64,000 nucleotides of DNA from Bacteroidales bacterium (GTDB lineage: Bacteria > Bacteroidota > Bacteroidia > Bacteroidales > FEN-979), in contig OY820914.1 of assembly GCA_963682005.1 (NCBI GenBank), forward strand, positions 4,964,979-5,028,978. The letters are read 5' to 3'. Position numbers and translations under genes: made by a program. Below the pieces are notes generated by a model that searched no databases, had not been told where the DNA came from, and worked only from the letters and a program-made list of their open reading frames with translations. Of the stretch, positions 2,766-27,400 are shown piece by piece. Positions within the stretch are counted from its first letter, which is position 1, and every line of letters begins with the position of its first letter.

Positions 2766-2768
2766 AAT

Positions 2769-3712: not shown

Positions 3713-3722
3713 AAAAACTGAC

Positions 3723-4097: not shown

Positions 4098-4123
4098 TTA
4101 TTCATTCATTAAAACCACAAATT

Positions 4124-5209: not shown

Positions 5210-5928
5210 AAACAGCAATTTATTTAGGCTCAACCCTTCTCATAATACTTGCCGGTATAATTATTATGAGGAAATCGCCCGATCAGCATTTTACTTCTAC
5301 CGATATAACCGTTATGCGGGATATCACGGATACTCAAATCTCACAACCCAAACTGTCCGATGTTTCCACTCTTTTAGATCTCGATAATTCAAAATGGGAT
5401 GGCGCAAACTTCAAATTCGTCGATATAACTGACGTGAGCTACAATCATATTTATGAAACTAAGATTCTACCTGAAAATCAATGGCTGGGTAATGAGTTGG
5501 ATCGGGATGAGAAAGTGAAGAAGTTCTATACTGAAATCTCCCAAATCCTTACTAATGCTGACACAGAGAAGGTAGGGAAGGTCAATTCTTCGATATATAA
5601 ACCTATTGCCTCTGAATTAAACTGTCTCAGTCTAAGTGCTTCACAAAACAAATCATTATTGGTCTACAGTGATTTGGAAGAGAATACTGACAAATTTTCT
5701 TTTTATGATAAGAAAAAAATCATCCTGTTAAGAACGGAACCGGACAGCATCCGAAAATACTTTGAAGCCCTCTCTCCCTTAAAAAATCTGACAGGAATCA
5801 AAGTCTTTCTGATTTACCAACCAAAAAATAACGAAGCCGATGAACTGTATCAACTAATTGCCGGATTGTACAAAACTCTACTGGAAAGTAAAGGAGCAAA
5901 AGTTGAAATCACCGCAAACATTAACTAA
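5206..5928 (+). CDS. membrane-anchored hypothetical protein (240 aa)
   Basis: 4-nt overlap with the upstream gene; single N-terminal TM AIYLGSTLLIILAGIIIM. Confidence 0.55.
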   Translation: MKTAIYLGSTLLIILAGIIIMRKSPDQHFTSTDITVMRDITDTQISQPKLSDVSTLLDLDNSKWDGANFKFVDITDVSYNHIYETKILPENQWLGNELDRDEKVKKFYTEISQILTNADTEKVGKVNSSIYKPIASELNCLSLSASQNKSLLVYSDLEENTDKFSFYDKKKIILLRTEPDSIRKYFEALSPLKNLTGIKVFLIYQPKNNEADELYQLIAGLYKTLLESKGAKVEITANIN

Positions 5929-5956
5929 AAGATTCAAACCCATAAAATTTTTAAAA

Positions 5957-6106
5957 ATGAAAAAGCGTGTAATCTTTTGGAGAATCTTGAAATGGTTTTT
6001 AGTACTTGCCTTCAAGATATTTATCGTTCTGCTTTGGGGAACCTTGAGATTGATAGAAGTAATCCTACAAAACCTCAATCCCTATCTTAAAAAATTGATT
6101 ACCTAA
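5957..6106 (+). CDS. small membrane protein (49 aa)
   Basis: ATG at 5957 inside the 5858..6106 ORF; hydrophobic WRILKWFLVLAFKIFIVLLWG. Confidence 0.3.
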   Translation: MKKRVIFWRILKWFLVLAFKIFIVLLWGTLRLIEVILQNLNPYLKKLIT

Positions 6107-6123
6107 CCTTTAATTAAAACAAT

Positions 6124-7587: not shown

Positions 7588-8074
7588 AGGGGCAATATGG
7601 GATTATCTCGAGACCTCCGGAGTACTTGAAAATGGCACAGATGAAGAGATAAAAGCGGCAAAAAAGGCATACAGAAAAGGATACTATCTAAGCTATAAAA
7701 GAAACCAACGTGCCAACAAGCCAGAGTTTATTATCAATTTTTCATCAGAGAATGGGGAGTATAGCAAGGTAAAGATGGCCGCAAAACATCATAAGATGAC
7801 CGTGACGGCCTTTATTCGATCATCAGTACTGGCATACCTGCAACAACGATTTCTCGTCCCTAATGCATTCCAAGTAGCCCATTTAGAGGAAACCCTCTCT
7901 CAATGTTTAAATGAAATACAAAAACTCGTCGGAGCTAAAGAAAAGTACTATTGGTCAAGAGAAGAAAAGTTTGAAGCAATTGAAAAAAGGATTGAAAAAC
8001 TTGAATATGACATAGATCAAGTATTTCGAAACCCTCCATTACTCCATCATGATAATCAAAATCAAATCCTTTAA
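7565..8074 (+). CDS. relaxosome accessory protein (RHH / MobA-MobC-like)
   Basis: Start taken at MKRTRKHKG. Contains a MTVTAFIRSSVLAYL ribbon-helix-helix-like segment. Overlaps the T4CP and relaxase genes. Confidence 0.55.
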   Translation: MKRTRKHKGAIWDYLETSGVLENGTDEEIKAAKKAYRKGYYLSYKRNQRANKPEFIINFSSENGEYSKVKMAAKHHKMTVTAFIRSSVLAYLQQRFLVPNAFQVAHLEETLSQCLNEIQKLVGAKEKYYWSREEKFEAIEKRIEKLEYDIDQVFRNPPLLHHDNQNQIL

Positions 8075-8891
8075 AAAGCCCGACTTCAAGAGACTGCTTG
8101 AATACATGCTCAATGATGAAAATCGCCTTTTTAACAGTAAAGACAAAAGTTTTTTTATCAGTCACAACTTAAAGGGAAGAAAGATTGATGGGCTGGTAAA
8201 GCAGTACTTGGAGAATGAAAAATTCCGTAAACGCAAAAGGAAAGACAGCGTAATTCTTACTCACGAAATTATTTCCTTTCATAAAGACGATTCAGATAAC
8301 ATTAACATCGAAAAACTGGAAGAAATCGCCAGGGAGTATATCAAACAAAGAAATAGCAGGGGAATATATGTAGCTGTCCCTCACTTTGATAAAGAACATT
8401 ACCATATTCATATCTGCGCTTCAGGCGTGGAATACCGGTTTGGGAAATCTCTGAGAATGTCCAAGGCAGGATTCCAGAAACTAAAAAAGGATATCCAAAA
8501 TTTTCAGATCGAACGGTTTCCGGAAATTTCCAAATCCTTGGTAGCTCATGATAAAAAAGGGAAGTCTCGACAAACGGAAAAGGAATACCAGCAAAAACTT
8601 AGAACCGGCAGGACTACTAAAAAAGAAAATGTCAGAGAAGCGATTGAGTCCTGTATAAAAACATCAAAATCAAAAAAAGAATTTTACACGAAGCTTAAAG
8701 AGTCTGGCTTTGAGATTTATAAAAGAAGCGGAAAGATCACCGGCGTTGTCTTGGACAAAATGAAGTTTCGCTTTGCTCGTCTCGGATTTACGGATGAAAG
8801 GTTTGAAGATCTGAATCAAGGCGATACACGAAGGAAAGACTTAAGTGAACTTAGAACGAAACGGGGAAAAACTATTATTCGCAACCGATAA
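8049..8891 (+). CDS. mobilization relaxase (MobA/VirD2 family)
   Basis: Histidine triad HFDKEHYHIHI; size and position typical of Bacteroidota mob relaxases. Confidence 0.8.
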   Translation: MIIKIKSFKKPDFKRLLEYMLNDENRLFNSKDKSFFISHNLKGRKIDGLVKQYLENEKFRKRKRKDSVILTHEIISFHKDDSDNINIEKLEEIAREYIKQRNSRGIYVAVPHFDKEHYHIHICASGVEYRFGKSLRMSKAGFQKLKKDIQNFQIERFPEISKSLVAHDKKGKSRQTEKEYQQKLRTGRTTKKENVREAIESCIKTSKSKKEFYTKLKESGFEIYKRSGKITGVVLDKMKFRFARLGFTDERFEDLNQGDTRRKDLSELRTKRGKTIIRNR

Positions 8892-8905
8892 CCTCTATTA
8901 ATCAC

Positions 8906-9889
8906 ATGCATCATATTAAAAATCAAGCTCCGCTTGATGTATACACAATTGTAACAAACAGAATAATTGAATTGCTTGAAAAAGGCGTCATTCCTTGGCA
9001 AAAACCCTGGACCGAAGCCGGAATACCCAAGAATTTGATTACCGGAAAGAATTACCGGGGAATCAATGTCTGGCTATTAAATTCCTTAAACTACGCACAA
9101 AACAGTTTTTTAACATTTAAGCAGGTGCAGGATTTAGGAGCTTCAATAAAAAAAGGTGAAAAAGCCAATTTGGTAGTTTTTTGGAAATGGCTTGAAAAAG
9201 AAAATAAAGAAACAAAGGAAGTTGAAAGAATACCTTTACTAAGGTATTACAATGTTTTCAACATTGATCAGTGTACCGGAATACCCAAAGAGAAATTACC
9301 CCAAGTTATTGAAAGTAAAATTGACCCAATTGAAGCATGCGAAAAGATTATCACAGAAATGCCTAAGCGACCTGATATTCGACATGTTGAACAAAGAGCA
9401 TATTACAATAGATTGGAAGACTACGTAAATTTACCTAGAACAGAAACCTTTAAAACCAGTGAAGCATATTATGCTACACTTTTTCATGAGCTAGTCCACA
9501 GCAGTGGACATCCCGATAGATTAAACAGAAGGGAACTGACGGATAGCAAAGGTTTTAACTCACAGGATTACGCCGTTGAAGAATTAACCGCTGAAATGGG
9601 AGCATCTTACCTCAAATCTTATGCAGGAATCCCTATCGAACAACTTGATAACAATGCAGCTTATATCCATACCTGGCTAGAAAGATTAAAAAATGACAAA
9701 CGGTTTATAGTTCATTCCAGCGCCCAGGCACAGAAGGCAACTGATTTTATCCTAAATATCAGGAATGAAGAAAAGGAATTGGATATTCCTGAGCAAGTTG
9801 AAGATCTTGATAAAAACACTGTAAGGGAAGGGGAATTGAAAGAAACAAGAGGAAAGGAAAAAGAAAAATCTTTCGGGATTCAAAAATAA
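8906..9889 (+). CDS. ardC: ArdC-like antirestriction protein (ssDNA-binding N-domain + zincin)
   Basis: N-terminal IPWQKPW / NYRGINVWLL pattern and C-terminal HELVHSSGH metalloprotease motif. Confidence 0.8.
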   Translation: MHHIKNQAPLDVYTIVTNRIIELLEKGVIPWQKPWTEAGIPKNLITGKNYRGINVWLLNSLNYAQNSFLTFKQVQDLGASIKKGEKANLVVFWKWLEKENKETKEVERIPLLRYYNVFNIDQCTGIPKEKLPQVIESKIDPIEACEKIITEMPKRPDIRHVEQRAYYNRLEDYVNLPRTETFKTSEAYYATLFHELVHSSGHPDRLNRRELTDSKGFNSQDYAVEELTAEMGASYLKSYAGIPIEQLDNNAAYIHTWLERLKNDKRFIVHSSAQAQKATDFILNIRNEEKELDIPEQVEDLDKNTVREGELKETRGKEKEKSFGIQK

Positions 9890-9926
9890 AGATCTAGCTA
9901 ACACAGAGAATTTTTAAAGACTTCTT

Positions 9927-12518
9927 TTATCCAGATTTGCATTTAGTAATAAAATCATCAAGTAATTTAAGTTCCGCCTCAAGCTTAGAATTTTTTGGTA
10001 CCGCTGGGTTTATCCCAGCTGCCATATCATGAAGCCAGTTTGAAGACTCAGTCATTCCATCATTTACGTCTTTAATTAAGGTTGGGTTTATATCAAGACT
10101 GTCTAATCTTTGAGTTTGCACACTTTTATTAAATCTTTGAACAACTCCTTTTAATAAACGCTCTTCAACAGCTCGTTCCCAAGCTTCTCTAAGGTATTCA
10201 TACCACCCTTTAACTTCTTTTCTGTATAGATCACGGTCGCCAGTCTCAAGCTTCTTTATTCTAACCAAATCGTTTCTTAAATAACCAACTCTGCTTTTTA
10301 CATTCAAAGCAAACCAAGGGAGTTCTTTTTTTGTTACGCCAATCCGGTCACCATTCTTGCTCATTGATAACGAAATTTGCTCAACGGATTGAGCTTTGGC
10401 ATAATTTTGTAATTCTAATAGAAAAACGATATCGTGGGTTAGAACGATAACTTGGCGTTCCCTTGCCTCTTTTACGAGTCTTTTTGCAATAGTACTTCTT
10501 CTTTCGTGATCAAGAGATGTGACAGGATCATCAAAAACAATTCCAGAATTATTTCTGTCCAATTTTGATTCTGTCAGGAAATCTGCCAAGGCACTAACAG
10601 TCTGTTCTCCTTCACTCAAAATATCGCTTGGATCATATCCTCGCGCAAATTCCAACTTAAGCCCTTTGACAGTAGTGGCATCCCGGCCATGAGACTCAAC
10701 TTTGAGTCCAAAATTGCAATCAAGTTCTTCCGTCTCTTTGTTAAAAATTTCGACATACCGTGATATTACCAGTTCACCCATAATTTCTGTCTTCTTTCTG
10801 GTAGTATTACCTCTTGCTGTTGCTAGATTTATGGGTACTACAGCATTTTCCCAACGCAACCATGCAATATGTTTTTTTATTTTAGAAAGTATTCTTGACG
10901 CCTGTAGTTTTTGTTCGAGACAAGTTATCTCCCCATTTAGAGACTTTATTTCAGGGGTAGGATCAACTAGCCCAGCTTCAGTTTTCTTTTTTAATTCAAT
11001 AAGTTTGTCTATCGGCTTTAAGTTTATCCCTGGATCAGAATAGCTAACTTTTTGCTCCTTCCCGACCATATCTATCCAGTTCAAAAGTTGAGTATTTAGA
11101 TCATGAAATCCTTTTATAATCTTTTCTAAATCTGTCGCAATATCTTTTTTAAGAATTTTTATGGCAATTTCAGTCTCTGAAAAGGCTGGCCAAGTCTTAT
11201 TTATTCGTTGCAGGTCTTCCACTGATGCTCTAAGTTCCTGCCTTGCTTTCGCCAGTTCGGTCTCTGCCGTACTCTTTAAAAAATCCCAGTAATTACTAAA
11301 TAATGTTTTTTCCTTCTCTTTAAGAGATTGCCTGCAAAGAAGACAATGTTCAGGCTTAACCCCAGAATTAGAAGCAGTTTCTTTTTCGTAGAGTTTTTGA
11401 GCTGCTATGATTAATGACTTCCATTCCGGACTGCCAATATTTTTAAAAGAAGCAAAATCAAAATTTTTAACGCTTAACTTATCGGCTATTTTAATTTTAT
11501 CTTGAATCTCCTTTACCAAATTATTGATCGTTTTGGCTTTTATTCCGCTCAGACATAAGCTTTTGGTAATGAGAGTCTTTTTAAATGTATCAAGATCGTT
11601 ACATTCATCAGTCAATTCCTTTTTTTGTTTTGGTACATCCTGCTTTAGTTTTTTTGCAACTAACCTTTTTTTCTCTTCAAGTACTGTTTTGTCGACCGGT
11701 GTAAATTTTAGAGCATTATCAATTTCCTTATCTGTAGTTTTATGAGACAACGAATCTAAGAATTCGGTGACAACAGATGTGCCTGTATAGAGACCTTCTA
11801 CCGGATTATCCTGCTGCCTTGCTTCTATTTCCTCAGTCAGTTTTGCCTCGATATTTACTATGCTCTTGAATACCTCATCAAAGATTTTTATCCTTGAAGG
11901 GACAAATTCAACTTTATTCTCACTATTTAGGTGGATCAAAGCACTTTCGTGATCGAAAACAGAAAAAGATTTAAGAGCCTCATGGGTCTGGCCTAGAATA
12001 TAGTTAATAATATGTGAACCTGAGTCATCGGATACATGAAAATCAGCTGTCGCCTTTTTCGCCCGATCAGAAGTGTTTCTTGCGTTTGGTAACAATTTTC
12101 TAGGTTTTCTTGAAAGACAAGCATTACTTAGAAGTCTTCCTATGCCTGATTTGCCTGTTCCATTGTCTCCGTAAATTATTGTCAAATTTTTACCAAACTC
12201 AAGAAAACAACCCTCGTCGACAGCATTTACATCTTTTAAGTTTTCAATTTTATCAAGTGAAATTTTTGCCTTTTGAGTATCGGCCCCATTTAAATCAAGA
12301 GTAGGAAAAACAATCTTAACTCTACCTGGTCCAACTTTTATCACGCCAGAATCTTCCAAGAGATACTTATAACATTTCAAAATATCTTCATCATCAAGAA
12401 TCTCTTTTGTCATGTGCAATTGCCACAAGTACTGTTCCCAATAAGGCTTGCTTTCCAGCCACATTTTAAGACTATCAACTTTTAGCCTTTTCATTTTTTT
12501 TCCAATTTCTTCACTCAT
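9927..12518 (-). CDS. AAA_13 / RloC-PrrC-like ABC-type ATPase with coiled-coil CxxC zinc hook and a C-terminal putative nuclease region
   Basis: Walker A GDNGTGKSG, CLLC hook (11334-11345) inside a long coiled coil, D-loop/H-loop VFDDPVTSLD..LTHD. C-terminal LREAWE...NWLHD resembles the PrrC R-x3-E...H arrangement. Start taken at the ATG at 12518. Confidence 0.6.
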   Translation of the reverse strand: MSEEIGKKMKRLKVDSLKMWLESKPYWEQYLWQLHMTKEILDDEDILKCYKYLLEDSGVIKVGPGRVKIVFPTLDLNGADTQKAKISLDKIENLKDVNAVDEGCFLEFGKNLTIIYGDNGTGKSGIGRLLSNACLSRKPRKLLPNARNTSDRAKKATADFHVSDDSGSHIINYILGQTHEALKSFSVFDHESALIHLNSENKVEFVPSRIKIFDEVFKSIVNIEAKLTEEIEARQQDNPVEGLYTGTSVVTEFLDSLSHKTTDKEIDNALKFTPVDKTVLEEKKRLVAKKLKQDVPKQKKELTDECNDLDTFKKTLITKSLCLSGIKAKTINNLVKEIQDKIKIADKLSVKNFDFASFKNIGSPEWKSLIIAAQKLYEKETASNSGVKPEHCLLCRQSLKEKEKTLFSNYWDFLKSTAETELAKARQELRASVEDLQRINKTWPAFSETEIAIKILKKDIATDLEKIIKGFHDLNTQLLNWIDMVGKEQKVSYSDPGINLKPIDKLIELKKKTEAGLVDPTPEIKSLNGEITCLEQKLQASRILSKIKKHIAWLRWENAVVPINLATARGNTTRKKTEIMGELVISRYVEIFNKETEELDCNFGLKVESHGRDATTVKGLKLEFARGYDPSDILSEGEQTVSALADFLTESKLDRNNSGIVFDDPVTSLDHERRSTIAKRLVKEARERQVIVLTHDIVFLLELQNYAKAQSVEQISLSMSKNGDRIGVTKKELPWFALNVKSRVGYLRNDLVRIKKLETGDRDLYRKEVKGWYEYLREAWERAVEERLLKGVVQRFNKSVQTQRLDSLDINPTLIKDVNDGMTESSNWLHDMAAGINPAVPKNSKLEAELKLLDDFITKCKSG

Positions 12519-12538
12519 AAAACTAACTTTAGAATAGA

Positions 12539-14239
12539 CTATGCCACGGCCCAAGTAGTTACGTTTTGATGAACAAGTTGTTGCCACTGTAATTCACCCT
12601 GTGAGGTTTGATTTGATTGCCATTGGTTTTCAAGCCAAGTCTTTAACAGACTTGAATTAGAAAAGTTATTTTCAACACCTACCTGTACAAACTCAATGAA
12701 TTTCTCCAAGGACAAAGGGATAATCCGAGTAGCACCACCATAAAGGTCAGTATAATTTTTATTAAGATTATAAAAGAAAGCCAACGTTCCTTGTGAAATA
12801 TTAGGAGCAATAAAAATACAATATGTATCTCTATTTACTAGGCGTTTAAAGTTTCCATAATGCCTCGGAACAGAATCTCCTTCCATTTTAAATTGAGTTT
12901 CTCCAGAGGAAAGGGTAACTTCACCCATGATAGCAAAATCATCAAATTCAATTTCTAAATCAGGTTTATTGCCCGGTGCAGTATTCAAAGGCATTCCATC
13001 CAAATCCATAATAAAATTACCATCTATGCGTCTAGCGTAATTTAGCATTACAAACGAGCGCCAAGTATTCCATTCAAGGAATAAAGATGGATCAGGAGCA
13101 TCCTTATCAATAATACTCTGGAATACATCAAGTATATCCTGAAATTCTTTGCGACTGCGTAATTCGATCTTTTTTTCCTCTATATTCTTCTTCTGGGTGG
13201 TTATCTTAAGATCATCAAAAATGTTCTTTAATTCTTCAATCCCCAAATCCAATTCTCCAGGTCCAAATTTCTTCAATCCTTCAATTTTGTGAATTAACAT
13301 AGTCTTGTCATCTGAAAGGAGGGGAATAGAATAAGGATTAAACATATATTCCTTGAATTCGCTCAAGGTTTTATATTCTGTAGGTTCTCTATTAATATTA
13401 GAAAGGATAAATTGAACCTCTTCAGTTTTATACGGTGAAATAATCAACCTTAAAGTTTTTTTCTCAAATGTAACTAATTCAGTGGCACGCACATATCTAA
13501 TAATTGCGTCAGCATAATCTTTCATATTTGACTTCTTCGTTCTGATAAATTCCTTCAAGGACGAATCTTCACTTTCCCTTGTAGCTGTATCACCTCGCTC
13601 AATTTCATTACCATAGATTTCTAGAATTTCTCTTTCAAAAACCTCATGTACATACATTTTTCTACTTCCAGGATACGATCTGCTACCTTCCCTAAAAGCT
13701 ATAATTTTTTTAATGATCACGTCATATTTGGAAATATTTACCAATTGCAAAAAGAAAATAGCTAATTCAGTCTTTGAAAGACTACCGAGATCGAGTATCA
13801 ACCTAATCAATTCCAGGTAAGGTTTAACAAAAAAGTTAGTGGTTCTTGATTGTAAATGATATGGAGATGGAAGCTGAAACTTTAACAATTGACGAGTGAA
13901 CGTTTCATCTATACGTTTCTCCGTTAGCAATAATTTTCCAGCAGAGGTGAGATTTATTACCGGTTTCAAGTCAATAAAACCTAACGCTTGTGGGGCTCTC
14001 GTAATTCTATCTCGAGCTGCAAAAGCAGGATCAGATGGGTAATTCTCACCTTCATAAAAAGAAGAGTGAAATAACTGATCAAAAAATTCAGCCTGTAATT
14101 CCTGATTTCCAGACCATACCTTGCCTTCAAAACTTGAACACAACAATCCAATCTCTGGAATGATTTTACTTATTGTCCTTGGAGAAGTAAAACCGAAAAT
14201 AGTTTTTGATTTACTTAGATTAGCCATATTTATTCCCAA
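12539..14239 (-). CDS. AlwI/PleI/MlyI/N.BstNBI-family type IIS restriction endonuclease
   Basis: SPRTISKIIPEIGLL..FEGKVW..RDRITRAPQALGFI at the N-terminus and PDLEIEFDDFAIMGEVTLSSGETQFKMEGDSVPRHY..RIIPLSLEKF at the C-terminus match my memory of this family. Confidence 0.8.
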   Translation of the reverse strand: MGINMANLSKSKTIFGFTSPRTISKIIPEIGLLCSSFEGKVWSGNQELQAEFFDQLFHSSFYEGENYPSDPAFAARDRITRAPQALGFIDLKPVINLTSAGKLLLTEKRIDETFTRQLLKFQLPSPYHLQSRTTNFFVKPYLELIRLILDLGSLSKTELAIFFLQLVNISKYDVIIKKIIAFREGSRSYPGSRKMYVHEVFEREILEIYGNEIERGDTATRESEDSSLKEFIRTKKSNMKDYADAIIRYVRATELVTFEKKTLRLIISPYKTEEVQFILSNINREPTEYKTLSEFKEYMFNPYSIPLLSDDKTMLIHKIEGLKKFGPGELDLGIEELKNIFDDLKITTQKKNIEEKKIELRSRKEFQDILDVFQSIIDKDAPDPSLFLEWNTWRSFVMLNYARRIDGNFIMDLDGMPLNTAPGNKPDLEIEFDDFAIMGEVTLSSGETQFKMEGDSVPRHYGNFKRLVNRDTYCIFIAPNISQGTLAFFYNLNKNYTDLYGGATRIIPLSLEKFIEFVQVGVENNFSNSSLLKTWLENQWQSNQTSQGELQWQQLVHQNVTTWAVA

Positions 14240-15042
14240 AATTTATTTTCATCAACGGATGCAGATTTAGGTTGCAGAATATCCTTACCAGTTAATTTGT
14301 ATTCTACTATTCGTTTTTTTGAAATTTCAAGTGCTTTTTCCGATATATCACATCCAACAAAGGTGCATTTGTTTTTTAGGGCTGCTATCGCTGAGGAAGC
14401 ACTACCTAAGAATGGATCGCAAACAGTAAAATTCTTATCTCCACTTGCAAATATCATTGCTTGGAATACTTCAACTGGTTTTTGCGTTGGATACTTGCTC
14501 GCGTGTATTCTTTTGAACCTCCAAACGTCAGGAAAGGTCCTATTTCGTATATGACGGTTATTACCATTAGTAGCAAAGATAATATATTCATGCCGTCGTC
14601 TAAAGTAATGCCCCATCCCAATATTCACCTTATCCCAAGTAATTAAATTTTTTACATCAAAGTACTCTCTTACTAGATGACCAAGGCTAAGCATGGAAAA
14701 TGAATCAAACATGATATAGATGTGTCCTGTCGAGGGTTTAAGGACCCGTTTACATTGTGTTAAAAACAATCTATAGTTCTCAGCCGAATCTTCAAACTCA
14801 CCAAACCATTTTCCGTTCTCCTTGCCTTTGTCTGAATATTGACCAACTATTCTACCTTTACCAAGCATAAGTTTATTGTTCATTCCAGAATAAGCTGGAT
14901 CAGTGACAATAATGTCTACACTTTGATCTGGTAATTTGCTTAGAAACGAGATCGCATCATCTCTAAATATCTTAACAGAGTTATCAGAGGATGAATAATA
15001 TAAGGTTTTTTTTGGGCGTACTTTTGGGCTACTCTTAGTCAT
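14230..15042 (-). CDS. beta-class N6A/N4C DNA methyltransferase
   Basis: Motif IV-like TDPAYSG lies N-terminal to motif I CDPFLGSASS; 10-nt overlap with the endonuclease gene. Confidence 0.85.
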   Translation of the reverse strand: MTKSSPKVRPKKTLYYSSSDNSVKIFRDDAISFLSKLPDQSVDIIVTDPAYSGMNNKLMLGKGRIVGQYSDKGKENGKWFGEFEDSAENYRLFLTQCKRVLKPSTGHIYIMFDSFSMLSLGHLVREYFDVKNLITWDKVNIGMGHYFRRRHEYIIFATNGNNRHIRNRTFPDVWRFKRIHASKYPTQKPVEVFQAMIFASGDKNFTVCDPFLGSASSAIAALKNKCTFVGCDISEKALEISKKRIVEYKLTGKDILQPKSASVDENKFWE

Positions 15043-15400
15043 AAAAATTTCTAATTCAACAATATATCAATGCTCGTAATAAATTCATTTGTATTCATTG
15101 TACACGATTCAAGCGTATTTTCAAGCTCCTTCGAACAAAGGTAAAAAAAAGGACTTCTGCAACGGCCTTTTATCTTATTTAAGGACCAACAAAGGATCGT
15201 TAACGAAATCAAAACTGAGTTAGATTTACAAGAAGAAACAACAATTCAAATAGAAGCGAAGAGGAACAAGATTGCCAAAATTATTGAAAAAGCAATAAAA
15301 GCGTTAGCCATCCATAGGAGATTAATGATGATTTTTGGGCTTGTTATTTTACATATTATGTATATTTACATGAGTTATTCATACCCAAATTTATTATCCC

Positions 15401-16288
15401 ATGAAAAAGCCAGCTTCTGAACCTAAATCAAAAGCTCAAAATCTAAGCTTTAACGTTTTGAATATTCGTCTTCATTCAAACTCAAGAACGGGCCCCAATG
15501 CTTATTTTGAAATTTTTGAAAAAATTGCTGATTCAAGAACAGTTGTGCAAGTTTCGATTGATAGATTTATAATCTTAAGGACAAAGTTTGTCACAGAAAT
15601 TTCAGGACAAAAGATTATTTATGGTAAAATTGCCGGATTCACAAAAATTTCAGAAACCAATTGGCTAAATATTAATAATTTAGAGGTGGAATCAGTCGTA
15701 ATTCCCGCTGATCATTTTCCTAATATTCGTGAAACAGACTATATATTCATTCCGGCTGCACATAGAATTGCTATTGTTAAATCTCCCCAATTCGGACTCT
15801 ACAATGCAATTAAATTCTTGAACGAATCATTACTAAAAGTAATTGGTAGTGATGAACAAATAGACGTTATTATTGAGCAAAGTTCTGATATTTTCAAGGA
15901 AATTATGGAGGCTCCAATTATCAGGAGTCTTGACATTGAAATATCCTATAGTAATGCTGATATTAAACATGGTGAATATTATAAATGGCTTGATGATGAA
16001 TTAAGGGAAGCCGAAGTCGGAAATATTAAGCTCTCAATCCGGCCAGATCAAAATAATGAAATAAAAATTGATAACAGCCAACTTATCAAGGGCGCATTAA
16101 GCGTTGCGCAAAGTAATGGTTCTGTGTCAGCTACTATTATTACACCTGAGAGAAAGAGAAAAAAAATAATTACAAAGTTTCACCCTGAGATATTTCGGAG
16201 AAAGATAGATCATCCCGATGAAAAAAATCCAAGTATTTTTGCAATGATAATGGAACGGTTTAGAAATAAGTCACATGAAGGAAACTGA
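15401..16288 (+). CDS. hypothetical soluble protein (295 aa), first gene of an unassigned two-gene cassette
   Basis: ORF; no catalytic motif recognised. N-terminal FNVLNIRLHSNS..YFEIFEKI pattern only vaguely reminiscent of a DUF family. Confidence 0.6.
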   Translation: MKKPASEPKSKAQNLSFNVLNIRLHSNSRTGPNAYFEIFEKIADSRTVVQVSIDRFIILRTKFVTEISGQKIIYGKIAGFTKISETNWLNINNLEVESVVIPADHFPNIRETDYIFIPAAHRIAIVKSPQFGLYNAIKFLNESLLKVIGSDEQIDVIIEQSSDIFKEIMEAPIIRSLDIEISYSNADIKHGEYYKWLDDELREAEVGNIKLSIRPDQNNEIKIDNSQLIKGALSVAQSNGSVSATIITPERKRKKIITKFHPEIFRRKIDHPDEKNPSIFAMIMERFRNKSHEGN

Positions 16289-16922
16289 CCCTGTAAAAGC
16301 TAGACATAAAAAGGGCATTATTGGAATCATCCAGTCATATGGATTAAGCAATATTATATGGAGCTTCCCCTCAATTACTAGCTTATTGCTCTCGATTTTG
16401 GTTGTGGGTTTTCTATATTTTAATCAACAGTATAATAGTCATGATATATTAATAAAATTGTCAGACTTATCACTTTTAATATATCCAAGTCTGCTGGGTT
16501 TCAGTTTAGGTGGCTATGCTTTAATTATTGGATTTGGTAATACTTCCTTACTAAAATCAATGACTCGAACCAAAACAGATAAAGATTTCACAATCTTTCA
16601 AAGGATGAACGGGATATTTGCTTTCGGACTACTATTACAAGTGCTCGAACTAATATTCGCCTTTATTATTAAATTTACGAACATTCTCGAAGGATCCAAC
16701 AGAATTTCTTTTTTCCTCACACATCCCAATATTAGCCAGATATTAAATTTAGGTGGCAACTTTCTGCTTTTATGGTGGGCTTGTTGGAGTCTAATTATGA
16801 TCCCTTTCATTGTGTCAAATGTTTTCTTATTCGGACAAATGCACCATCTATACTTGACGAAACAAAGAATGATAGAGGACAGACAAAAGGAGGCTGAGAA
16901 ACAAAAAGAGCCGAAGGCCTAG
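16275..16922 (+). CDS. 4-5 TM membrane protein (215 aa), second gene of the cassette
   Basis: 14-nt overlap with the upstream ORF; hydrophobic segments SLLLSILVVGFLYF, LGFSLGGYALIIGFG, IFAFGLLLQVLELIFAFII, LLLWWACWSLIMIPFIVSNVFLF. Confidence 0.6.
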   Translation: MKETDPVKARHKKGIIGIIQSYGLSNIIWSFPSITSLLLSILVVGFLYFNQQYNSHDILIKLSDLSLLIYPSLLGFSLGGYALIIGFGNTSLLKSMTRTKTDKDFTIFQRMNGIFAFGLLLQVLELIFAFIIKFTNILEGSNRISFFLTHPNISQILNLGGNFLLLWWACWSLIMIPFIVSNVFLFGQMHHLYLTKQRMIEDRQKEAEKQKEPKA

Positions 16923-16936
16923 CTTCTGCTCACTAC

Positions 16937-16961
16937 AGCCAACAATAACTTGTGGCTTTTT
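16937..16961 (+). terminator. weak rho-independent terminator after the membrane-protein gene
   Basis: AGCCA(A)CA ... TGTGGCT stem followed by TTTTT. Confidence 0.4.
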
Positions 16962-17053
16962 CATTCTTTTCGCTACGCTTCATTCAATAAATAATCACAA
17001 TCCACAAGCTGACAATAATATAGTAGGGTAGTAATTCCGAATTTAGGGGGTAC

Positions 17054-17165
17054 GGGGGACAACGTCCCTCGCAAGATTGCGTGTGGCGGTTTACGAAGTT
17101 TACCGTCCACACGCAATCTTGCTATTGAGCCGGCGAGCTTGAATTTAGCTGTGCCGAAGGCTCAA
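17054..17165. other. compact triple-hairpin structured element between convergent genes
   Basis: Hairpins at 17054-17070, 17071-17122 and 17125-17165. The middle one is 20 bp with one bulged T at 17106. No T-run follows. Confidence 0.6.
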
Positions 17166-17192
17166 CAATGGGTGACTATATACGAGATGGGA

Positions 17193-17498
17193 TTAGTTCT
17201 CACCCAGGAAACCCGAAAGATACTTTCTACATCGTGTACTAAGTTCATCAGCGATTATACTTAGAGTGTCTCCCATGAAACCATCTTCTTCTGCTCTTGC
17301 TAATGTACCCCTTGCTCCTTCATATAAACGTTTAGTTAAGTCTATAATGTCTCTAAGGTATGAGGTACTTAATATTCTCGCACCATCCTTTTCGGGGTTA
17401 ATAAATTTAGCCTTTTTATCAGCCATTTCATTTATAAAACCAAAATAGATGTCATCTATTTTTTCAAGTTCTTCAGATAAAAATTGAGAAAGTTCCAT
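17193..17498 (-). CDS. hypothetical protein (101 aa)
   Basis: ORF only; helical, acidic. Confidence 0.45.
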   Translation of the reverse strand: MELSQFLSEELEKIDDIYFGFINEMADKKAKFINPEKDGARILSTSYLRDIIDLTKRLYEGARGTLARAEEDGFMGDTLSIIADELSTRCRKYLSGFLGEN

Positions 17499-17902
17499 AA
17501 TCCTGTGTTTTGATGAATAACAAATATACGGAGTTCAACAGGTCGAAAAAGAAAAGAAGTTGGGAAAATATAAATTTGTTATTGTATAATGGCTTCCCCC
17601 TTAGTGACTATAATAGAAAAACCTCTTCTATAAAAGAAATTTTAAAAAGAACCAAAAACAAAGTATTTGTAATTGTATTGTGTCGATGTTAATTGGGAGA
17701 TAACCTCTTTAAAGCCTGTGTGTGAGGCGTTATCCTCAATTAATATCGAAATTATTGTCACTTTTTTGTTGACTTATATGAAAAAACTCATTAAAGACAT
17801 TGATAATAAAGTAAATAACCATAGAATTGAACTCCTCTTTTGATGATCAGAATAGTTTAACCTTTTTATGTTACCCACTCAAAATTACAAAGTGACTTTA
17901 TA

Positions 17903-17939: not shown

Positions 17940-18428
17940 CTAAAGTAACCCTTCGTCAGCAAAAGTAAAATAAGCACCGCTTGATGCGATGATTAAATGA
18001 TCGAGAACTTTTATATCCAAAAGACTCCCAGCTTCTTTCATTCTCTTTGTCAATGTTATATCCGATTCACTAGGTTGAATATTCTGTGAGGGATGATTAT
18101 GACAAAGTATCAAATTACTTGCATTTGTCTGAAGCGCAAGCATAAAAACGATTTTTACATCGACAACGGTTCCACTTGTACCTCCTGAACTTAGTCTAAA
18201 CCAGCCCAGGATGTTGTTAGCCCTATTGAGAAGGAGCAAATAAAACTCTTCCTTAAGCTCAATGGTGTTTATATCAAAAAGGGGATAGAGAGCATTAAAT
18301 GCATCTCTGGAATTCAAAATCTTCGTTTTGTTGCTCGATTTTGTTTTATAACTCACAAAAATTTCGGCAAGCCCGGGACTTTTTTCACTTGTGCTTGCCT
18401 CAATGACATTTTTCATATTCCTGTTCAT
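17940..18428 (-). CDS. radC: RadC-like JAB/MPN domain protein
   Basis: JAMM motif HNHPSQNIQPSESD; start taken at MNRNMKN (the upstream ORF extension has no ATG). Confidence 0.8.
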   Translation of the reverse strand: MNRNMKNVIEASTSEKSPGLAEIFVSYKTKSSNKTKILNSRDAFNALYPLFDINTIELKEEFYLLLLNRANNILGWFRLSSGGTSGTVVDVKIVFMLALQTNASNLILCHNHPSQNIQPSESDITLTKRMKEAGSLLDIKVLDHLIIASSGAYFTFADEGLL

Positions 18429-18557
18429 ACTTTCTTTTTTAAAATGATTACTTTTTTCTATTCGGTTTTCAAAAACCAGTTCTGTCGAGGAGTATAGCGA
18501 CTGATAATTAAAAATCAAGATTGACAAAAAAACATGGAAATGTGGAATAAAATCAGA

Positions 18558-18849: not shown

Positions 18850-19728
18850 ATGAAAGAAAAAATAAAAAAGTATTTAGAGTGGAAGGGGACTTATGCCCCA
18901 CGTGCCAGTGAAAATTATAAGATCTGGTTGGATAGATTTATTGAAATATGCGGTGACAAGCCCATACAAAAATATCAGATCGGGGACTACGTGAAATATC
19001 AGAGTTGGATAGAATCTCATTTTAGCTCATATTGCGTGCAATATTCGACTGTCATTATCAAAAACTTCTTCAAATTCTACCGTGATCAGAATATTAAATG
19101 TATGTCGCCATCGTTTATAAAAATTCCTCGTGCTCACAGGAATTCACACCGGGCTATTAATGAGGAAGAGTATAGAAAAACAATATCAGGAATACCAAGT
19201 AATAACTTTCGCTCATTGCGGGACCTTTTAATAATCCGTTTTCTTTGGGATACCGGTGTGCGTGTCTCGGAACTTTGCGATCTAAACATCTCTCAGATAA
19301 ATGAGAACAGTAGCTCTTGTGCTATCTATACTAAAAAGAACGGAAACCCGCGTATTATTGTTTGGTCCGAAGAAACACACAGGTATCTGATAAAATACCT
19401 TTCCATTCGCCTTGAATTGGACAAGGTACATCATTCCTCCGCTCTTTTTCCCGGCTTAGGTATAGATCATTGTTGGAAAGGAAGGATAACATCCCGAAGT
19501 GTACAGAGAATTATAAAAATAAATGTCAGTAACGCAGGCATAAAAGAAAAAATCACCCCTCACAGTTTTCGTCATGGATGGGCACATATGCGAAGGGACC
19601 AAAACGCACCCCTGGCCTTCATTCAGAGGGGACTAGGGCACGTCAGCCCAACATCGACCTTTATTTATGAGCAGTATAACGATAATGAATTTGTAAAAAA
19701 TGCCAATGTCTATTTTAGCCCAGCTTAG
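18850..19728 (+). CDS. small tyrosine recombinase (XerC/D-like, 292 aa)
   Basis: DTGVRVSEL (Arg), HSFRHGWA (HxxR), LGHVSPTSTFIY (His/Tyr). Confidence 0.85.
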   Translation: MKEKIKKYLEWKGTYAPRASENYKIWLDRFIEICGDKPIQKYQIGDYVKYQSWIESHFSSYCVQYSTVIIKNFFKFYRDQNIKCMSPSFIKIPRAHRNSHRAINEEEYRKTISGIPSNNFRSLRDLLIIRFLWDTGVRVSELCDLNISQINENSSSCAIYTKKNGNPRIIVWSEETHRYLIKYLSIRLELDKVHHSSALFPGLGIDHCWKGRITSRSVQRIIKINVSNAGIKEKITPHSFRHGWAHMRRDQNAPLAFIQRGLGHVSPTSTFIYEQYNDNEFVKNANVYFSPA

Positions 19729-20908: not shown

Positions 20909-21277
20909 ATGTTTTCCCTTGGCGCTGCCCGATATTACCTGTACCGGGAACCAACCGATATCCGCAGGAGTTTTGACGGTCTGTGCGGTCTGGTCACAGA
21001 ACGGTTGGGTCAGAATCCCATGAGCGGGGATGTGTTCATCTTCATCAACAAGCCACGTAACCGGATGAAATTGCTCAAATGGGAACCGGGAGGGTTCGTG
21101 CTGTTCTATAAGCGACTTGAACGAGGCACCTTTGAAATTCCCAGTACATCTTTTCAAGGGCTTTCCCATCAGATCGGCTATGGGGAACTGACCATGATGG
21201 TCACTGGTATATCAATGAAATATACAAAAAAAAGAAGGCGTTTTTTGTCACAAAATGATGTTGATAAATATCGCTGA
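20909..21277 (+). CDS. tnpB: IS66 accessory protein TnpB (orf2)
   Basis: YLYREPTDIRRSFDGLCGLV..DVFIFINKPRNRMKLLKWE matches the IS66 Orf2 signature. Confidence 0.85.
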   Translation: MFSLGAARYYLYREPTDIRRSFDGLCGLVTERLGQNPMSGDVFIFINKPRNRMKLLKWEPGGFVLFYKRLERGTFEIPSTSFQGLSHQIGYGELTMMVTGISMKYTKKRRRFLSQNDVDKYR

Positions 21278-21318
21278 AATAGTGATTTAGCAAGAGTTTT
21301 TCATGATAAATTTGAATC

Positions 21319-22779
21319 ATGGAAAGCACAGAAATGGTCACCATCAGTAAAGCAGATTTTGAGGCTCTCAAATCAGAAAATGCCTGGCTCAAACATCAGC
21401 TTTCCGAACTGAAACGTCTGATCTACGGAGCCAAAAGTGAGCGTTTCATTGCCGTCAATCCGGATCAGGCTACCTTGTTCGATCTCCCAGCAGAACAACC
21501 ATCAGAAACGCCCACAGAAGAAATCACCTATACACGCAACAAACCACAACAGGAGAAAAAGCAGCCACTTCGTCTGGAACTGCCTGCTCACCTGGAACGT
21601 CGGGAAGAAATAATCGAGCCGGAAAACCTTCCTGCCAATGCAAAGAAGATTGGTGAAACTGTTACCGAAATTTTGGAATATGAACCGGCCAGCGCTTATG
21701 TTCGTCGCATTGTCCGTCGCAAGTACATTGTGGAGCAGACCGATGAAGAGACCCGCATCGTCATTGCACCGTTACCTACCTTGCCAATACCCAAAGGCAA
21801 TGCCGGAGCCAGCATGATCGCCCATCTTCTGGTGAGCAAATTTGTCGATCATCTTCCGTTCTACCGCCAGGTCCAGATGTTCAAACGCCAGAGGCTCGAA
21901 ATCGCCGAATCGACCATTAACGGTTGGTTCAATGGAGGGTGTGATTTGATAGAGCCGCTATACCAGGCACTGAAGTCAAGAATGTTGGCATCTGATTATC
22001 TCATGGCCGATGAAACCCCGATCCCAGTGCAGACCAAGGACAAGCCCGGGGCCACACACAAAGGTTTTCACTGGGTCTATTACGATCCCGGCAACAAATT
22101 GGTGCTGTTCGATTACCGGAAAACCCGGGGGAAAGAAGGACCCGATGAACTGCTGAAGAACTACGCCGGGTATCTGCAAACCGATGGCTATACTGCCTAC
22201 AACCACCTTGAAAACACAAACAACATCACTCTTCTGGCCTGTATGGCGCATGCCCGGCGCAAGTTCGAGCATGCACAGGAGAATAATCCCACGCTAGCCG
22301 CCCAGGCATTGAAAATGTTCCAGGCCTTGTATGACATTGAACAGGACATCCGGGAAAAAGAACTGGGACCCGACGTCACCCAAATACTGCGTCAGGAAAA
22401 ATCAAAACCTACTCTCGATCGGATGGAAGCCTGGCTTAAGGAACAGATTATTGTCGTACCCCCAAAAAGCGCTATCGGAGTGGCCATTGCATACACGCTC
22501 AATCTCTGGCCTCGGCTGACCCGGTATATCGATGACGGACGCTTCCACATCGACAATAACCTAATCGAAAACAGCATCCGGCCGGTGGCGCTTGGACGCA
22601 AGAACTACCTCTTTGCCGGTTCCCATGAAGCCGCCCAACAAGCAGCTGTGATCTACTCCATCCTGGCTACATGCAAGCTACACCAGGTGGAACCCTTCGC
22701 CTATCTCACCAAAATCTTGTCCATCATCCCCGACTTCCCGGCCAATCAACTGCACACACTTCTGCCAGGGCAAAAATAG
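21319..22779 (+). CDS. tnpC: IS66-family DDE transposase TnpC
   Basis: N-terminal leucine-zipper-like region and YLMADETPIPV, YLQTDGYTAY, NNLIENSIRPVALGRKNYLFAGS motifs. Confidence 0.9.
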   Translation: MESTEMVTISKADFEALKSENAWLKHQLSELKRLIYGAKSERFIAVNPDQATLFDLPAEQPSETPTEEITYTRNKPQQEKKQPLRLELPAHLERREEIIEPENLPANAKKIGETVTEILEYEPASAYVRRIVRRKYIVEQTDEETRIVIAPLPTLPIPKGNAGASMIAHLLVSKFVDHLPFYRQVQMFKRQRLEIAESTINGWFNGGCDLIEPLYQALKSRMLASDYLMADETPIPVQTKDKPGATHKGFHWVYYDPGNKLVLFDYRKTRGKEGPDELLKNYAGYLQTDGYTAYNHLENTNNITLLACMAHARRKFEHAQENNPTLAAQALKMFQALYDIEQDIREKELGPDVTQILRQEKSKPTLDRMEAWLKEQIIVVPPKSAIGVAIAYTLNLWPRLTRYIDDGRFHIDNNLIENSIRPVALGRKNYLFAGSHEAAQQAAVIYSILATCKLHQVEPFAYLTKILSIIPDFPANQLHTLLPGQK

Positions 22780-22832
22780 CAATCATATCTCGTTGGAAAA
22801 AGATGCTCGTGGCCGAAGGGTTACTCTTAATC

Positions 22833-23230
22833 TAGCAGAGCTTAAGGTTCTTCTCGTTGTCATCCGACAAACTCTTGGCTGGGCTGACAGGCGTGGAATG
22901 TATGGAAGAAAAGAAACTGATTGGATTTCTGGTAGCCAACTAAGAGAAAAAACCGGAAGCTCTGAACGAGCTATCACTTCGGCGATAGAAACACTGGTAA
23001 TGAAAAGATTAATCGAAGTTCATGATGATAGGGGACACAAACTTTTATATTCAAAGAATAGACAAGGGAAGATCCGCCTGTATTACAGTCTGCACCCTTC
23101 TGTTTTTAATACTGTGGATAACTCCCTGAAAAGCCCTCTAACTTCTGCAAATTTTGCGGAGGACTTCCGCAAAAATTACGGAACACTTCTGCAAAAAATG
23201 CGGATAACAAAAGAAACTCTACAAAACTAA
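22833..23230 (+). pseudogene. 3' fragment of the rep-like winged-helix gene
   Basis: Continues the 20487 reading frame. The ATG of the tracked 22793 ORF lies just upstream of, and its first codons run through, the IS66 right IR, so it is chimeric. Confidence 0.8.
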
Positions 23231-23874: not shown

Positions 23875-24399
23875 TCATTGCCCTAGTATTTTAGTTCTAT
23901 ACGTACCTTCAAGTATCAGCCTGGCAAGATCATCCTCAACTTTTATGTTTGGGTTTATTCTCAATATCTCTTTCATAATAGCTTGTAGATCTTTAGAATT
24001 GAAGTGACCATAAGGTATAAGATACCTCACAAAAATACCCTTGGGTTCTTTGTAGTCAAATCCAAGATAGTTAGTATATGGAGTTTTCTTTTGTTTAACC
24101 GATACAAAGTCTAATATCTCTCCTGATTTTGCACCATTGAAATAACTAATTATAGTACTATCTTTAAACTCAATACGATCATAAAGAATAGTCCAAACAT
24201 CTAACATTAATTTAACCACCCATAGAACTAAAAGAACTATCCAAAATTCTTGATTCTTTAAAGTAGTCATTATTCTGAAATTATGCATTAGCAGAAGAAG
24301 ACAAATCGACATTACAATTGCCCAGGGCAATGTACTTTTGAATACTATTTTTTTATCTACTCTAAATATTTTATCTGGCAATGTTTTTTGTGTTTTCAT
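23875..24399 (-). CDS. 2-TM membrane protein with cytosolic domain, candidate cognate immunity protein (174 aa)
   Basis: Starts 9 nt after the rhs stop; hydrophobic helices WAIVMSICLLLLM and FWIVLLVLWVVKLML. Confidence 0.55.
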   Translation of the reverse strand: MKTQKTLPDKIFRVDKKIVFKSTLPWAIVMSICLLLLMHNFRIMTTLKNQEFWIVLLVLWVVKLMLDVWTILYDRIEFKDSTIISYFNGAKSGEILDFVSVKQKKTPYTNYLGFDYKEPKGIFVRYLIPYGHFNSKDLQAIMKEILRINPNIKVEDDLARLILEGTYRTKILGQ

Positions 24400-24408: not shown

Positions 24409-27400
24409 TTATTTCTTCTTGTTAGTTCCAGAACTAATAATACTCATTGGTGCTTCTACCGTCCAGCCAATTTTGCTTAATCCATATTGTTGGGCAGCGT
24501 ATGTACCAAGGTTTAATGTACTGCCAGCAAAGCTACCAACCCATGAACCAAATCCCGAACCCAATATTGAACCAGCAACTTTTACTGGATTTACACTATG
24601 ATCCCCAGTAGCTACTTGTGTAGATAAATTAGTTGCACCAGCTATTCCCATAGCGAATTTTATGCTTATATCTGGTCCTGTCATTGCTCCACCAGCATAA
24701 CTAAGACCTACAATTTTAGCATAATCACCAAACGAAGTTTGTTTATTTTGCATTTGATCTTCCAATATCTGACTACCAACATTGAATGTTGTATTTATTG
24801 TTCCTCTAACTACGGCTTGTGAATTAAATAATGTGTTAGCTACTGTACTTGCAACACTGCTCCCTGCAATCATAGCTCCACCTACTGCAGTTGCTCCACC
24901 AACCACTCCAATGGCTGCTCCCGTGGCATATGGGTGATCCATAGCCATCTGCCAACCACCTCCCATATATTGGGCCGCTTGTCCAACTTCTCCTGAAAAA
25001 TTATTCCATGATTGTGTACCAGACAAGTATTCTCCAAACCATTTTCCACTCGGATCACTTAGTATAATCGGATTGTTTCTGGCATAACTATAACTATTTA
25101 ACTGTTGTGGATCATTTAAAAATTTATCTGGATTCCAGAACACCGGATCCTCTGAAATAAACCTCCCAGCCGTGCTTTGATGATAACGGGCGTTTAGATA
25201 GTTTAAGGAAGTGTCTGGGTCATAATGTTGACCGATGTATTGTTTCTGATTCGTGTGGCTCCCAGAGGAGATTCTTTGTGAACCAAAGGGGTAGTAATCG
25301 AGTAATTCTACTTGTCCTCCATTTGAATCTGAAACGACATTGGTTGAACCAAGATGGTCTGGGTGGATATAGTATGGAGTAACGACAGAATTAGCTGTTT
25401 CAATGGTTGACACTAATTGATTACCCGCATATATGTTCTTGGTCTTTTTGGATCCTCCATAGTTGTAATACTGATTTGGATATTCTGTTGTCAGAGTGCC
25501 ATTACTAGATAATACCCTATTACCTTGTTCGTCGTAAAGGTACTCTCGAGTAAATGTTCCGTTAGTGGTTTCAGTCAGTTGATTTTTGTAATTCCAGGTG
25601 TTGGTGAGGGTACCGTCGTCAGTATTGTTACCATTGTGATCGTAGGTGTTTGTGACACTGTTAATTGAAGTGGCAGCGTGGGGGTTAGCGTAGTTGGTGC
25701 CACTGTTTCCTGCGTAAGTATAACTTCCCACTGGACCTGAAGTGATATTTCCAATTGCGTTGTAGGTAAAATTTTGAGTGTAAGGAGTCTGACCAAATGG
25801 CACATCGGTGATAGTGGCAGAAGTCAGACGATTTAGATCGTCATAGGTATAATCGGCTGTCTTGGATCCGCTTGTGCTTGAATCATCCACGATTTCAGTA
25901 ATGTTGCCATCAGCATCATACTCGTATGTGGTCTTTTGAAGACTTGTTGGTACTTGGTTGGTCGTTGATTTGTCAGTTACTCTGTATAAATTATTTGGGT
26001 CGTATGTATTCGTAGTCGTTACTCTATTGGCATAATTTATTTCTGTTGGTTGGTCAGTCGGCGCATAATCAAAATTCGAAATAACATCGGTGAAAGATCC
26101 TCCGCTTTCTTTATATTCTATTTTTTCCAGTAACCCAGCCGAATTGTAAACATAAAGAACTTGAGCATTGTCGGGATAAGTAATTACTAGCATATTACTC
26201 TGGCGATCATGAGTGTATGAAGTGGTGTAAATATTTTTGGTGACAGTTTTTTCCTCACTTGCGACATTCCCATCTGCGTCATATGTGTAATCCGTTTCCA
26301 CTCCACTTAGCATAACCGCGGAACATAGTTTTCCTATACCGTCTGAACATGAATCATAAGTATAGATAATATCTGTGCCAGTTGTTCCTGTAGAATCTTC
26401 AGTTAGTTTTCTGTTTACATCATCATAGGTATAGTCCACCGTATCGCCGTTAGGATTTATGCTTTCCGTCAAATTACCTGAATCATCATAGGTATATGCC
26501 CATGTTCCATAAGTTGCATCATTTTGCGCATGAAGATCTTCAGCCGTTAAACGATGTCCCAAATTATCATAGGTAAAATTCCGGACATTGCCAAGCGCGT
26601 CAGTTGTATTTATTAGATTGCCATTTAGATTCCAAGTGTAGTACGTGGAGTAAGTATAAGAGCCAGTTCTTTCGTCAACTCTCACCAAATTTTTATACGC
26701 ATCGTAGTAATAATTTTTGACTTTTCCACGTGGGTCACTCACGTCAATTTCCCATGGAGTGTAAGAATAAGCGGTAACACCTGACGCGTTGGTCAATGTA
26801 TGAATACGCTGCACGGGATCATAGGCGTATGTCGTATATAATGCTGTGGTTGTAGTTGGAGAAGTCTTGGATGATCCACTCCCTGTATATGGTAAAGATT
26901 CTTTTTGTACCAAACCAAGATTATTGTAAACAGTGTCTTTGACATTAAAGTTGCCAGAAGTTTCTGCCTCTTTTCTCTCTTGAATTAAACGTCCAAGCCC
27001 ATCAAAATATTGATAAGTATTAGCTGTGGTTGAAGAATTAAGATAGTTAACTTTTTGTACAGAGACTGCATTTGAAGTATCTGTATAGACATAAGCAGTT
27101 TTAGCGTCCAAAGTTGAAGGTGATGTTAGATCAGGAATTTTTTCGGTTAGCACTCGTCCAAGCCCATCGTAAGTTGTCTCTTTCGTTAACCCATTTGGAT
27201 CAGTAGTATCTATCACTTTGCCAGTTGAATAGTCATAGGTATATTCTGTGCTATTTGAAAGGGGATCGGTTATTGTGGTTGGGTAAAGGTGATATGTATC
27301 GTAAGAATAGGATGTTGTTTTTCCTCGTTCGTCAGTGGAAGTAATGGGAATACCATAGGTTGTATAGTATGATTTTTGAGTATTAACATTACGTGTCACA

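Follow-up and report, generated by a model that had tools for sequence, protein, structure and literature searches.

The question raised by this locus is what a compact pair of genes, one for a soluble protein and one for a membrane protein, does in the genome of a Bacteroidales bacterium. The pair, called here genes A and B, lies at positions 15401-16922 of a stretch of 64,000 nucleotides, which is referred to as the window (contig OY820914.1 of assembly GCA_963682005.1). A first-pass annotation, made from the letters of the DNA, had described it as a cassette of two genes, coding for a soluble protein and for a small protein that crosses the membrane several times, a description with which the hydropathy of the products and their homologues agree, and had suggested an abortive-infection system. 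Our conclusion is that A and B are one evolutionary unit, a fixed two-gene module. The function that we favour, with a probability of about 60%, is that of a self-contained Rex-like (RexAB/CarolAnn-type) abortive-infection module, carried as mobile-element cargo beside a restriction-modification (R-M) system. Fold, architecture and neighbourhood all point to such a role in defence, by analogy with the known Rex systems. The features of the pair are as follows.

15401-16288, + strand: gene A, ATG start, a soluble DUF4747 protein of 295 amino acids (aa) with a predicted RexA/RdgC-type fold
16275-16922, + strand: gene B, ATG start, a membrane protein of 215 aa with four transmembrane (TM) segments
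16275-16288, + strand: overlap of gene A and gene B, 14 nt shared
15043-15400: AT-rich intergenic spacer of 358 bp between the methylase gene and gene A

A fixed two-gene module

Both open reading frames (ORFs) have dozens of homologues (best E 1e-66 and 1e-82) and are therefore real genes; a word-indexed search gave 41 relatives of A and 21 of B, and the start codons of both genes agree with the N-termini of the homologues. Metagenomic contigs and one 5.27-Mb NCBI contig carry exactly this pair as well, flanked by identical neighbours. The overlap of 14 nt suggests a single operon with translational coupling of A and B. In other loci that hold the pair the two genes likewise overlap or are separated by gaps of a few nucleotides, and the pair on a Hymenobacter plasmid has an identical 14-nt overlap in the RefSeq annotation. 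The methylase gene at 14230-15042 is on the minus strand, and is therefore divergent from gene A; the overlap and this divergent arrangement had both been pointed out previously, and the coordinates and strands of the ORFs bear them out. The spacer at 15043-15400 is presumed to be the promoter region of the A-B operon. A scan for the sigma-70 consensus, which does not cover Bacteroidota-type promoters, found sites no more often than in shuffled sequence, a terminator scan, of a kind unsuited to Bacteroidota, was also at chance level, and there were no Rfam matches in 14900-17600.

It is striking how constantly the two genes occur together. A homologue of B lies directly downstream of the A homologue in 16 of the 17 loci found in reference genomes, over a range of A identities from 42% down to 25%, and these B homologues match the B profile with E values of 1e-34 to 1e-82. 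All 17 loci are from Bacteroidota except one, from a Gracilimonas metagenome-assembled genome. The sole exception to the pairing is an orphan DUF4747 gene in Segatella oulorum (L006; NZ_FUXK01000012.1, 1863-2732), whose 10.6-kb locus contains no homologue of B. Here the similarity to protein A stops at residue 262, which suggests that the 3' end of gene A was lost or replaced together with gene B. The reverse approach, starting from the four most distant relatives of B, found a DUF4747 gene directly upstream in every case (4/4). No third gene is conserved across the related loci.

The two proteins have also diverged together. Over 18 loci the pairwise identities of A and of B co-vary, with a Mantel r of 0.78 that none of 5000 permutations reached. 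By rank the correlation is lower, with a rho of 0.24, and part of the co-variation is thus due to the closest pairs. The picture is that of a Rex-like architecture, namely adjacent and co-oriented genes for a protein of predicted RexA fold and a four-TM protein, conserved as a pair. It is worth adding that in a Salmonella paper a DUF4747 gene (894 bp, strain-specific) precedes a hypothetical gene of 606 bp, which suggests that the same layout occurs in Proteobacteria.

Protein A, protein B and the known Rex systems

No segment of protein A is hydrophobic (maximum KD19 0.92). The protein matches the Pfam family DUF4747 (PF15931) with an E value of 2.9e-31 and 109.3 bits (cut-off 27), and the match runs over residues 21-262 of the protein and positions 1-250 of the 257 in the profile. 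The first-pass annotation had stated that no family could be assigned, while naming DUF4747 as one to try. The family is in fact this one, and it has already been linked in the literature to RexA, Sbash and CarolAnn. PF15931 is carried by all 41 of the homologues of A, and A is in addition a member of phrog_10040 (E 2e-29). An exhaustive profile search of a representative library of 1.84 billion proteins, clustered at 50% identity, gave 895 cluster representatives at E<=1e-3, of which 162 reach E<=1e-30; almost without exception these are single-domain proteins of 280-300 aa.

Searches of PDB sequences with phmmer and with a profile (hmmsearch) gave nothing meaningful for protein A. The AlphaFold model of A has a pLDDT of 84.3 and a pTM of 0.81, and when it was compared by Foldseek with 350,542 PDB chains, the two top matches were the two chains of phage lambda RexA in 8TWQ, at E 3.5e-6 (8twq_B) and 4.5e-5, with a probability of 1.00 and about 305 aligned columns. 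Next came E. coli RdgC (2owl, E 5.8e-4) and then the kinetochore proteins Chl4 and Iml3; the paper on the structure of RexA (PMC11077077) gives this set of fold neighbours for RexA itself. On the evidence of the model, protein A is predicted to have the two-domain fold of RexA and RdgC. When the model is compared with predicted structures of viral proteins, it comes closest to uncharacterised siphovirus proteins from gut viromes (E 1.6e-20, TM-score 0.76), followed by phage RdgC proteins.

The alignment of 168 family members shows H121, N185 and G240 of protein A to be invariant, and a further set of residues to be at least 90% conserved: N21, Y35, G75, F116, P118, R122, I168, D187, D198, N239, A244, T258 and P262. 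RexA has no counterpart of the polar constellation that these include (H121, R122, N185, D187, D198, N239, G240, T258). This constellation could mark a site of interaction, ligand binding or catalysis.

Protein B had been credited with four or five TM segments. Four is the number supported by hydropathy and by the AlphaFold model (pLDDT 85.6), which has four long TM helices at residues 31-49, 55-87, 107-139 and 151-211; the fifth finds no place in either. Lysine and arginine are concentrated at the N-terminus (5), in loop 2 (4) and at the C-terminus (7), with 0-1 in loops 1 and 3, and the N-terminus, the central loop and the C-terminus are therefore placed in the cytoplasm. This is the topology of the RexB family: four TM segments with cytoplasmic termini and central loop. 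The protein ends in a long cytoplasmic C-terminal helix. The family has a glycine-rich motif in TM2, P71-x2-LGFxLGGYALIxGFGN, and conserved polar residues in or near the TM helices (Q109, Q122, N158, N182 and the FGQ188 motif). B belongs to no Pfam, NCBIfam or PADLOC family; its sole matches are to PHROGs without an assigned function (phrog_20580, E 2.4e-10). Scans of PADLOC (at E<=1) and NCBIfam gave no match for protein A either, so the earlier proposal to identify the pair through PADLOC led nowhere. Since PADLOC v2, in which the presence of a Rex-type model is unconfirmed, returns nothing, defence annotation based on PADLOC misses this family.

Few phage-exclusion systems have been known for as long as RexAB, and the resemblance of the pair to it extends over several features. 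In both, the first gene codes for a soluble protein of about 280-295 aa and the next, immediately after it on the same strand, for a four-TM protein, with a stop/start overlap as in rexA-rexB; RexA is the best match of A among solved structures; the partner has four TM segments with cytoplasmic N- and C-termini; and both are on mobile DNA. The differences are equally clear. Neither protein has detectable sequence similarity to its lambda counterpart, and B, which has the long cytoplasmic C-terminal helix as an extra feature, is 215 aa long against 144 aa for RexB. The host phylum here is Bacteroidota. Instead of lying in a prophage immunity region and being co-transcribed with cI, the pair is found as cargo of an integrative and conjugative element (ICE) or in a defence island beside R-M genes; the copy in the window does not lie in a prophage beside an immunity repressor.

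In the literature DUF4747 has been tied by HHpred to lambda RexA and, through a weak match, to the soluble proteins of three actinophage exclusion systems. These are the validated pairs Sbash gp30/31, CarolAnn gp44/43 and Butters gp30/31, each made of a soluble and a four-TM protein. Purified actinophage homologues of RexA are dimers that bind DNA non-specifically (PMC11077077). RexB and Sbash gp31 are four-TM proteins with cytoplasmic N- and C-termini, and Sbash gp31's central cytoplasmic loop is required for defence. As in our pair, the soluble gene comes first in CarolAnn, where genes 44 and 43 overlap by 26 nt. The sensors of Sbash, CarolAnn and Butters have 337-372 aa, in contrast to the 295 aa of protein A, a member of DUF4747 proper, and these systems are encoded by prophages of Actinobacteria. 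Neither CarolAnn gp44 nor gp43 belongs to a Pfam family at E<=10. According to a 2026 paper, 'DUF4747/CarolAnn' is one of the immune operons that lie downstream of CapK/CapS regulators; at some loci it is sandwiched, with an R-M operon upstream of it.

Defence neighbourhoods and the Rex-like reading

As a raw count, a restriction or modification component directly adjoins the pair in about 8 of 19 loci, which are listed here with the orientation and distance of that component.

Window: AlwI-type R-M pair, divergent, 358 nt
L009: C5 methylase, same strand, 77 nt
L011: SNF2/ResIII helicase, divergent
L016: methylase fused to a Mrr-like nuclease, downstream of B, opposite strand
L018: type I specificity subunit, same strand, 45 nt
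L019: Eco57I/MmeI-like type IIG enzyme, same strand, 43 nt
L020: GmrSD-HNH, same strand, 31 nt
L022: methyltransferase, same strand, 18 nt to DUF4747

In at least five independent loci the pair is thus 18-77 nt downstream of methylase, specificity or restriction genes and co-oriented with them. L022 is the mobilisable Hymenobacter canadensis plasmid NZ_CP114769.1, with an annotated defence island at 3-13494 in which the order is HNH endonuclease, restriction endonuclease of the BPTD_3080 family, methyltransferase, DUF4747, B homologue and two DUF2075 proteins; a search of plasmids returned one record only. Two distant copies of the pair directly adjoin other defence genes, one a SEFIR/TIR_2 protein (L023, 1365-2360) and the other a CAP12-PCTIR_TIR protein (L024, 1667-2509). 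Genes for HicA and for a HipA-like kinase are found near the pair in other loci. There are four integrases among 118 neighbouring genes, and in one further locus (L026) a second Mob/T4CP/integrase element has the pair in the same cargo position as in the window.

These observations suggest a mechanism modelled on RexAB. Protein A would be the cytoplasmic sensor and, by analogy with RexA and its actinophage homologues, would probably be dimeric and bind DNA non-specifically. Infection would activate A, which would then act on its dedicated partner B, whose central loop and C-terminal helix, predicted to lie on the cytoplasmic side, would be available for contact with A. Protein B would be the effector in the inner membrane, with a putative channel activity that would dissipate the membrane potential. 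The loss of potential would arrest the infected cell and abort the growth of the phage, giving a phage-exclusion phenotype.

A number of results weigh against this reading. Protein A has no match to Pfam RexA (PF15969) at E<=1, and lambda RexA itself matches PF15969 at 1.4e-96 and not PF15931. Comparison of A with RexA by hhalign gave probabilities of 0.15-0.3%, whether a single sequence, a 20-sequence RexA alignment or a deeper 168-sequence profile of A (Neff 6.3; local, global and low-mact modes) was used. The link between protein A and RexA is therefore structural only, since profile-profile comparison shows nothing, and it depends on a predicted model that Foldseek aligns to RexA with a TM-score of only 0.33. 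The two structures thus do not superpose rigidly, for which hinged domains could be the reason. Protein B has no match to Pfam RexB (PF15968) at E<=1 and an hhalign probability of 0.09%. Foldseek with B against BFVD gave no match at E<=0.001 and none named RexB in the top 50, in a database where the presence of RexB is unconfirmed and with a method by which small helical bundles compare poorly. As B has no detectable similarity to RexB, the analogy between them as effectors is one of topology and position only. The hhalign probabilities for CarolAnn are 0.06% for A with gp44 and 0.09% for B with gp43.

The distribution and the literature add to these points. Classical Rex systems are prophage-borne. 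Searches of 50,697 phage genomes (INPHARED) with A and B by tblastn gave no match and a scan of IMG/VR gave no relatives; phage-borne relatives do exist, as indicated by the siphovirus matches of A among predicted structures and by the PHROG relatives. Some loci have only housekeeping genes at the flanks of the pair (TrmE, phosphoglucomutase, ABC transporter). Even in lambda, DNA binding by RexA is reported as not strictly needed for exclusion. The literature searched yielded no experimental test of any member proper of the Pfam family DUF4747.

The Kiwa-like pair offered as an example in the first-pass annotation, with KwaA as membrane sensor and KwaB as effector, resembles A-B superficially, in being a two-gene system of a membrane and a soluble protein found in defence islands. 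Kiwa genes are ordered kwaA then kwaB, the reverse of the soluble-first order seen here. Protein A is moreover DUF4747 whereas KwaB is DUF4868, a family also proposed as one to try, to which A has no match at E<=1. With no match in PADLOC, where Kiwa models are expected (unverified), and with RexA as the best structural match, we consider Kiwa very improbable and have set it aside. What survives of the earlier suggestion is its general part: abortive infection is the best available reading of fold, architecture and neighbourhood, with RexAB as the analogue in place of Kiwa. Literature searches on KwaB with RexA, and on RexAB in Bacteroides, gave nothing relevant.

The structural evidence for protein A also bears on another possibility, that A is a modulator of recombination or replication like RdgC, tethered to the membrane by B and acting in the DNA processing of a conjugative element, for example by control of RecA on DNA that has entered or been excised, and not in phage defence. 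RdgC (PDB 2OWL/2OWY) is the second-best structural match of A and shares the fold superfamily with RexA, phage RdgC proteins are among the viral matches, and the copy in the window is found among relaxase, ArdC, RadC and recombinase genes; a regulatory role of lambda RexA independent of RexB is also on record. RexA nevertheless matches better than RdgC, and Pfam RdgC is not matched at E<=1. RdgC is a housekeeping protein that stands alone, unaccompanied by a membrane protein; the obligatory four-TM protein has no counterpart in its biology. Many loci with the pair have no conjugation genes, and are typically beside restriction and TIR-type defence genes. We regard an RdgC-like function as distinctly unlikely.

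A role in the retention of the element is unlikely too, but has somewhat more in its favour. Here B would be a membrane-damaging toxin and A its cytoplasmic inhibitor, in an addiction module resembling toxin-antitoxin systems. The overlapping operon lies between T4CP/relaxase and integrase genes both in the window and in L026, HicA and HipA-like toxins are among the neighbours, and B is a small four-TM protein with conserved polar residues in the membrane. However, at 295 aa and with a predicted two-domain RexA/RdgC fold, A is unlike the typical small antitoxins, and many copies are chromosomal, beside R-M or housekeeping genes, with no mobility genes. Toxin-antitoxin action and abortive infection are in any case compatible, which makes this partly a sub-case of the Rex-like reading.

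A further possibility extends that reading. The pair may be coupled functionally to R-M, as a second-line abortive stage in which A would sense the ends or fragments of DNA, or the complexes of protein with DNA, that arise while the adjacent R-M system engages a phage or fails against it, and would then fire B. This would explain the tight co-oriented linkage in at least five loci as well as the divergent R-M operon in the window; we hold it as a tentative idea, with a probability that is low though above that given to addiction.

If the Rex-like reading is correct, the DUF4747 family (895 clusters) with its co-evolving four-TM partner takes the Rex architecture into chromosomes, plasmids and conjugative elements of Bacteroidota, and thus beyond lambdoid and actinobacterial prophages. 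The link between DUF4747 and Rex is already known from the literature; the pair is outside the sequence families of RexA and RexB, and the family of B is unnamed. For comparison with RexAB, in its trigger and in how RexA acts on RexB, protein B would provide a second effector family, unrelated in sequence to RexB, and the conserved residues would be targets for mutation. Two features of the system stand out as the least ordinary: its tight linkage to R-M genes, seen repeatedly, and the conserved constellation of polar residues in A. A fitting annotation for the pair would be Rex-like (DUF4747) candidate defence pair, and not 'hypothetical'.

The mobile element in the window

The genes around the pair in the window are the following.

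6124-7587: type IV coupling protein (T4CP)
8049-8891: relaxase
8906-9889: ArdC-type anti-restriction protein
9927-12587, - strand: AAA_13/SMC_N/AAA_21 ATPase, 886 aa, overlapping the 3' side of the endonuclease gene and co-oriented with it
12539-14239, - strand: AlwI-type restriction endonuclease
14230-15042, - strand: N6_N4 methylase
17071-17122: inverted repeat, perfect over 16 bp (GCAAGATTGCGTGTGG / CCACACGCAATCTTGC), arms 20 nt apart, in the gap where gene B and the 101-aa ORF converge
17193-17498, - strand: 101-aa ORF with no Pfam family, kept in other copies of the element
17940-18527, - strand: RadC
18850-19728, + strand: tyrosine recombinase
20909-22779, + strand: IS66-family element (TnpB-like Orf2 and DDE transposase), just past the recombinase
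23875-24399, - strand: 174-aa ORF with no Pfam family, after the RHS toxin
24409-30471, - strand: polymorphic toxin of 2020 aa (RHS-repeat/FG-GAP/SpvB/DUF6443)

The gene map agrees with the earlier placing of the pair between an R-M block and a RadC/recombinase block, in a region of defence and mobile cargo. With T4CP, relaxase, ArdC and R-M genes on one side and RadC and the recombinase on the other, the pair is best seen as cargo of a mobilisable or integrative element. The 886-aa ATPase, previously called RloC-like, may be an ATPase linked to the R-M system. The 101-aa ORF was considered as a third component of the system and was ruled out, because it has no homologue in the 17 related loci.

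The inverted repeat at 17071-17122 is unique within the window and is predicted to form an RNA hairpin of -41.2 kcal/mol (z = -7.9), with no run of T and no match in Rfam. It could serve as a terminator in both directions or as a binding site for a protein; any tie to the A-B system is tentative.

Further downstream, the GC content jumps from about 0.36 to 0.46-0.51, coinciding with the IS66-family element, and an ORF of 145 aa at 22793-23230 has a weak match to phage replication protein O. The 174-aa ORF that follows the RHS toxin could encode its immunity protein.

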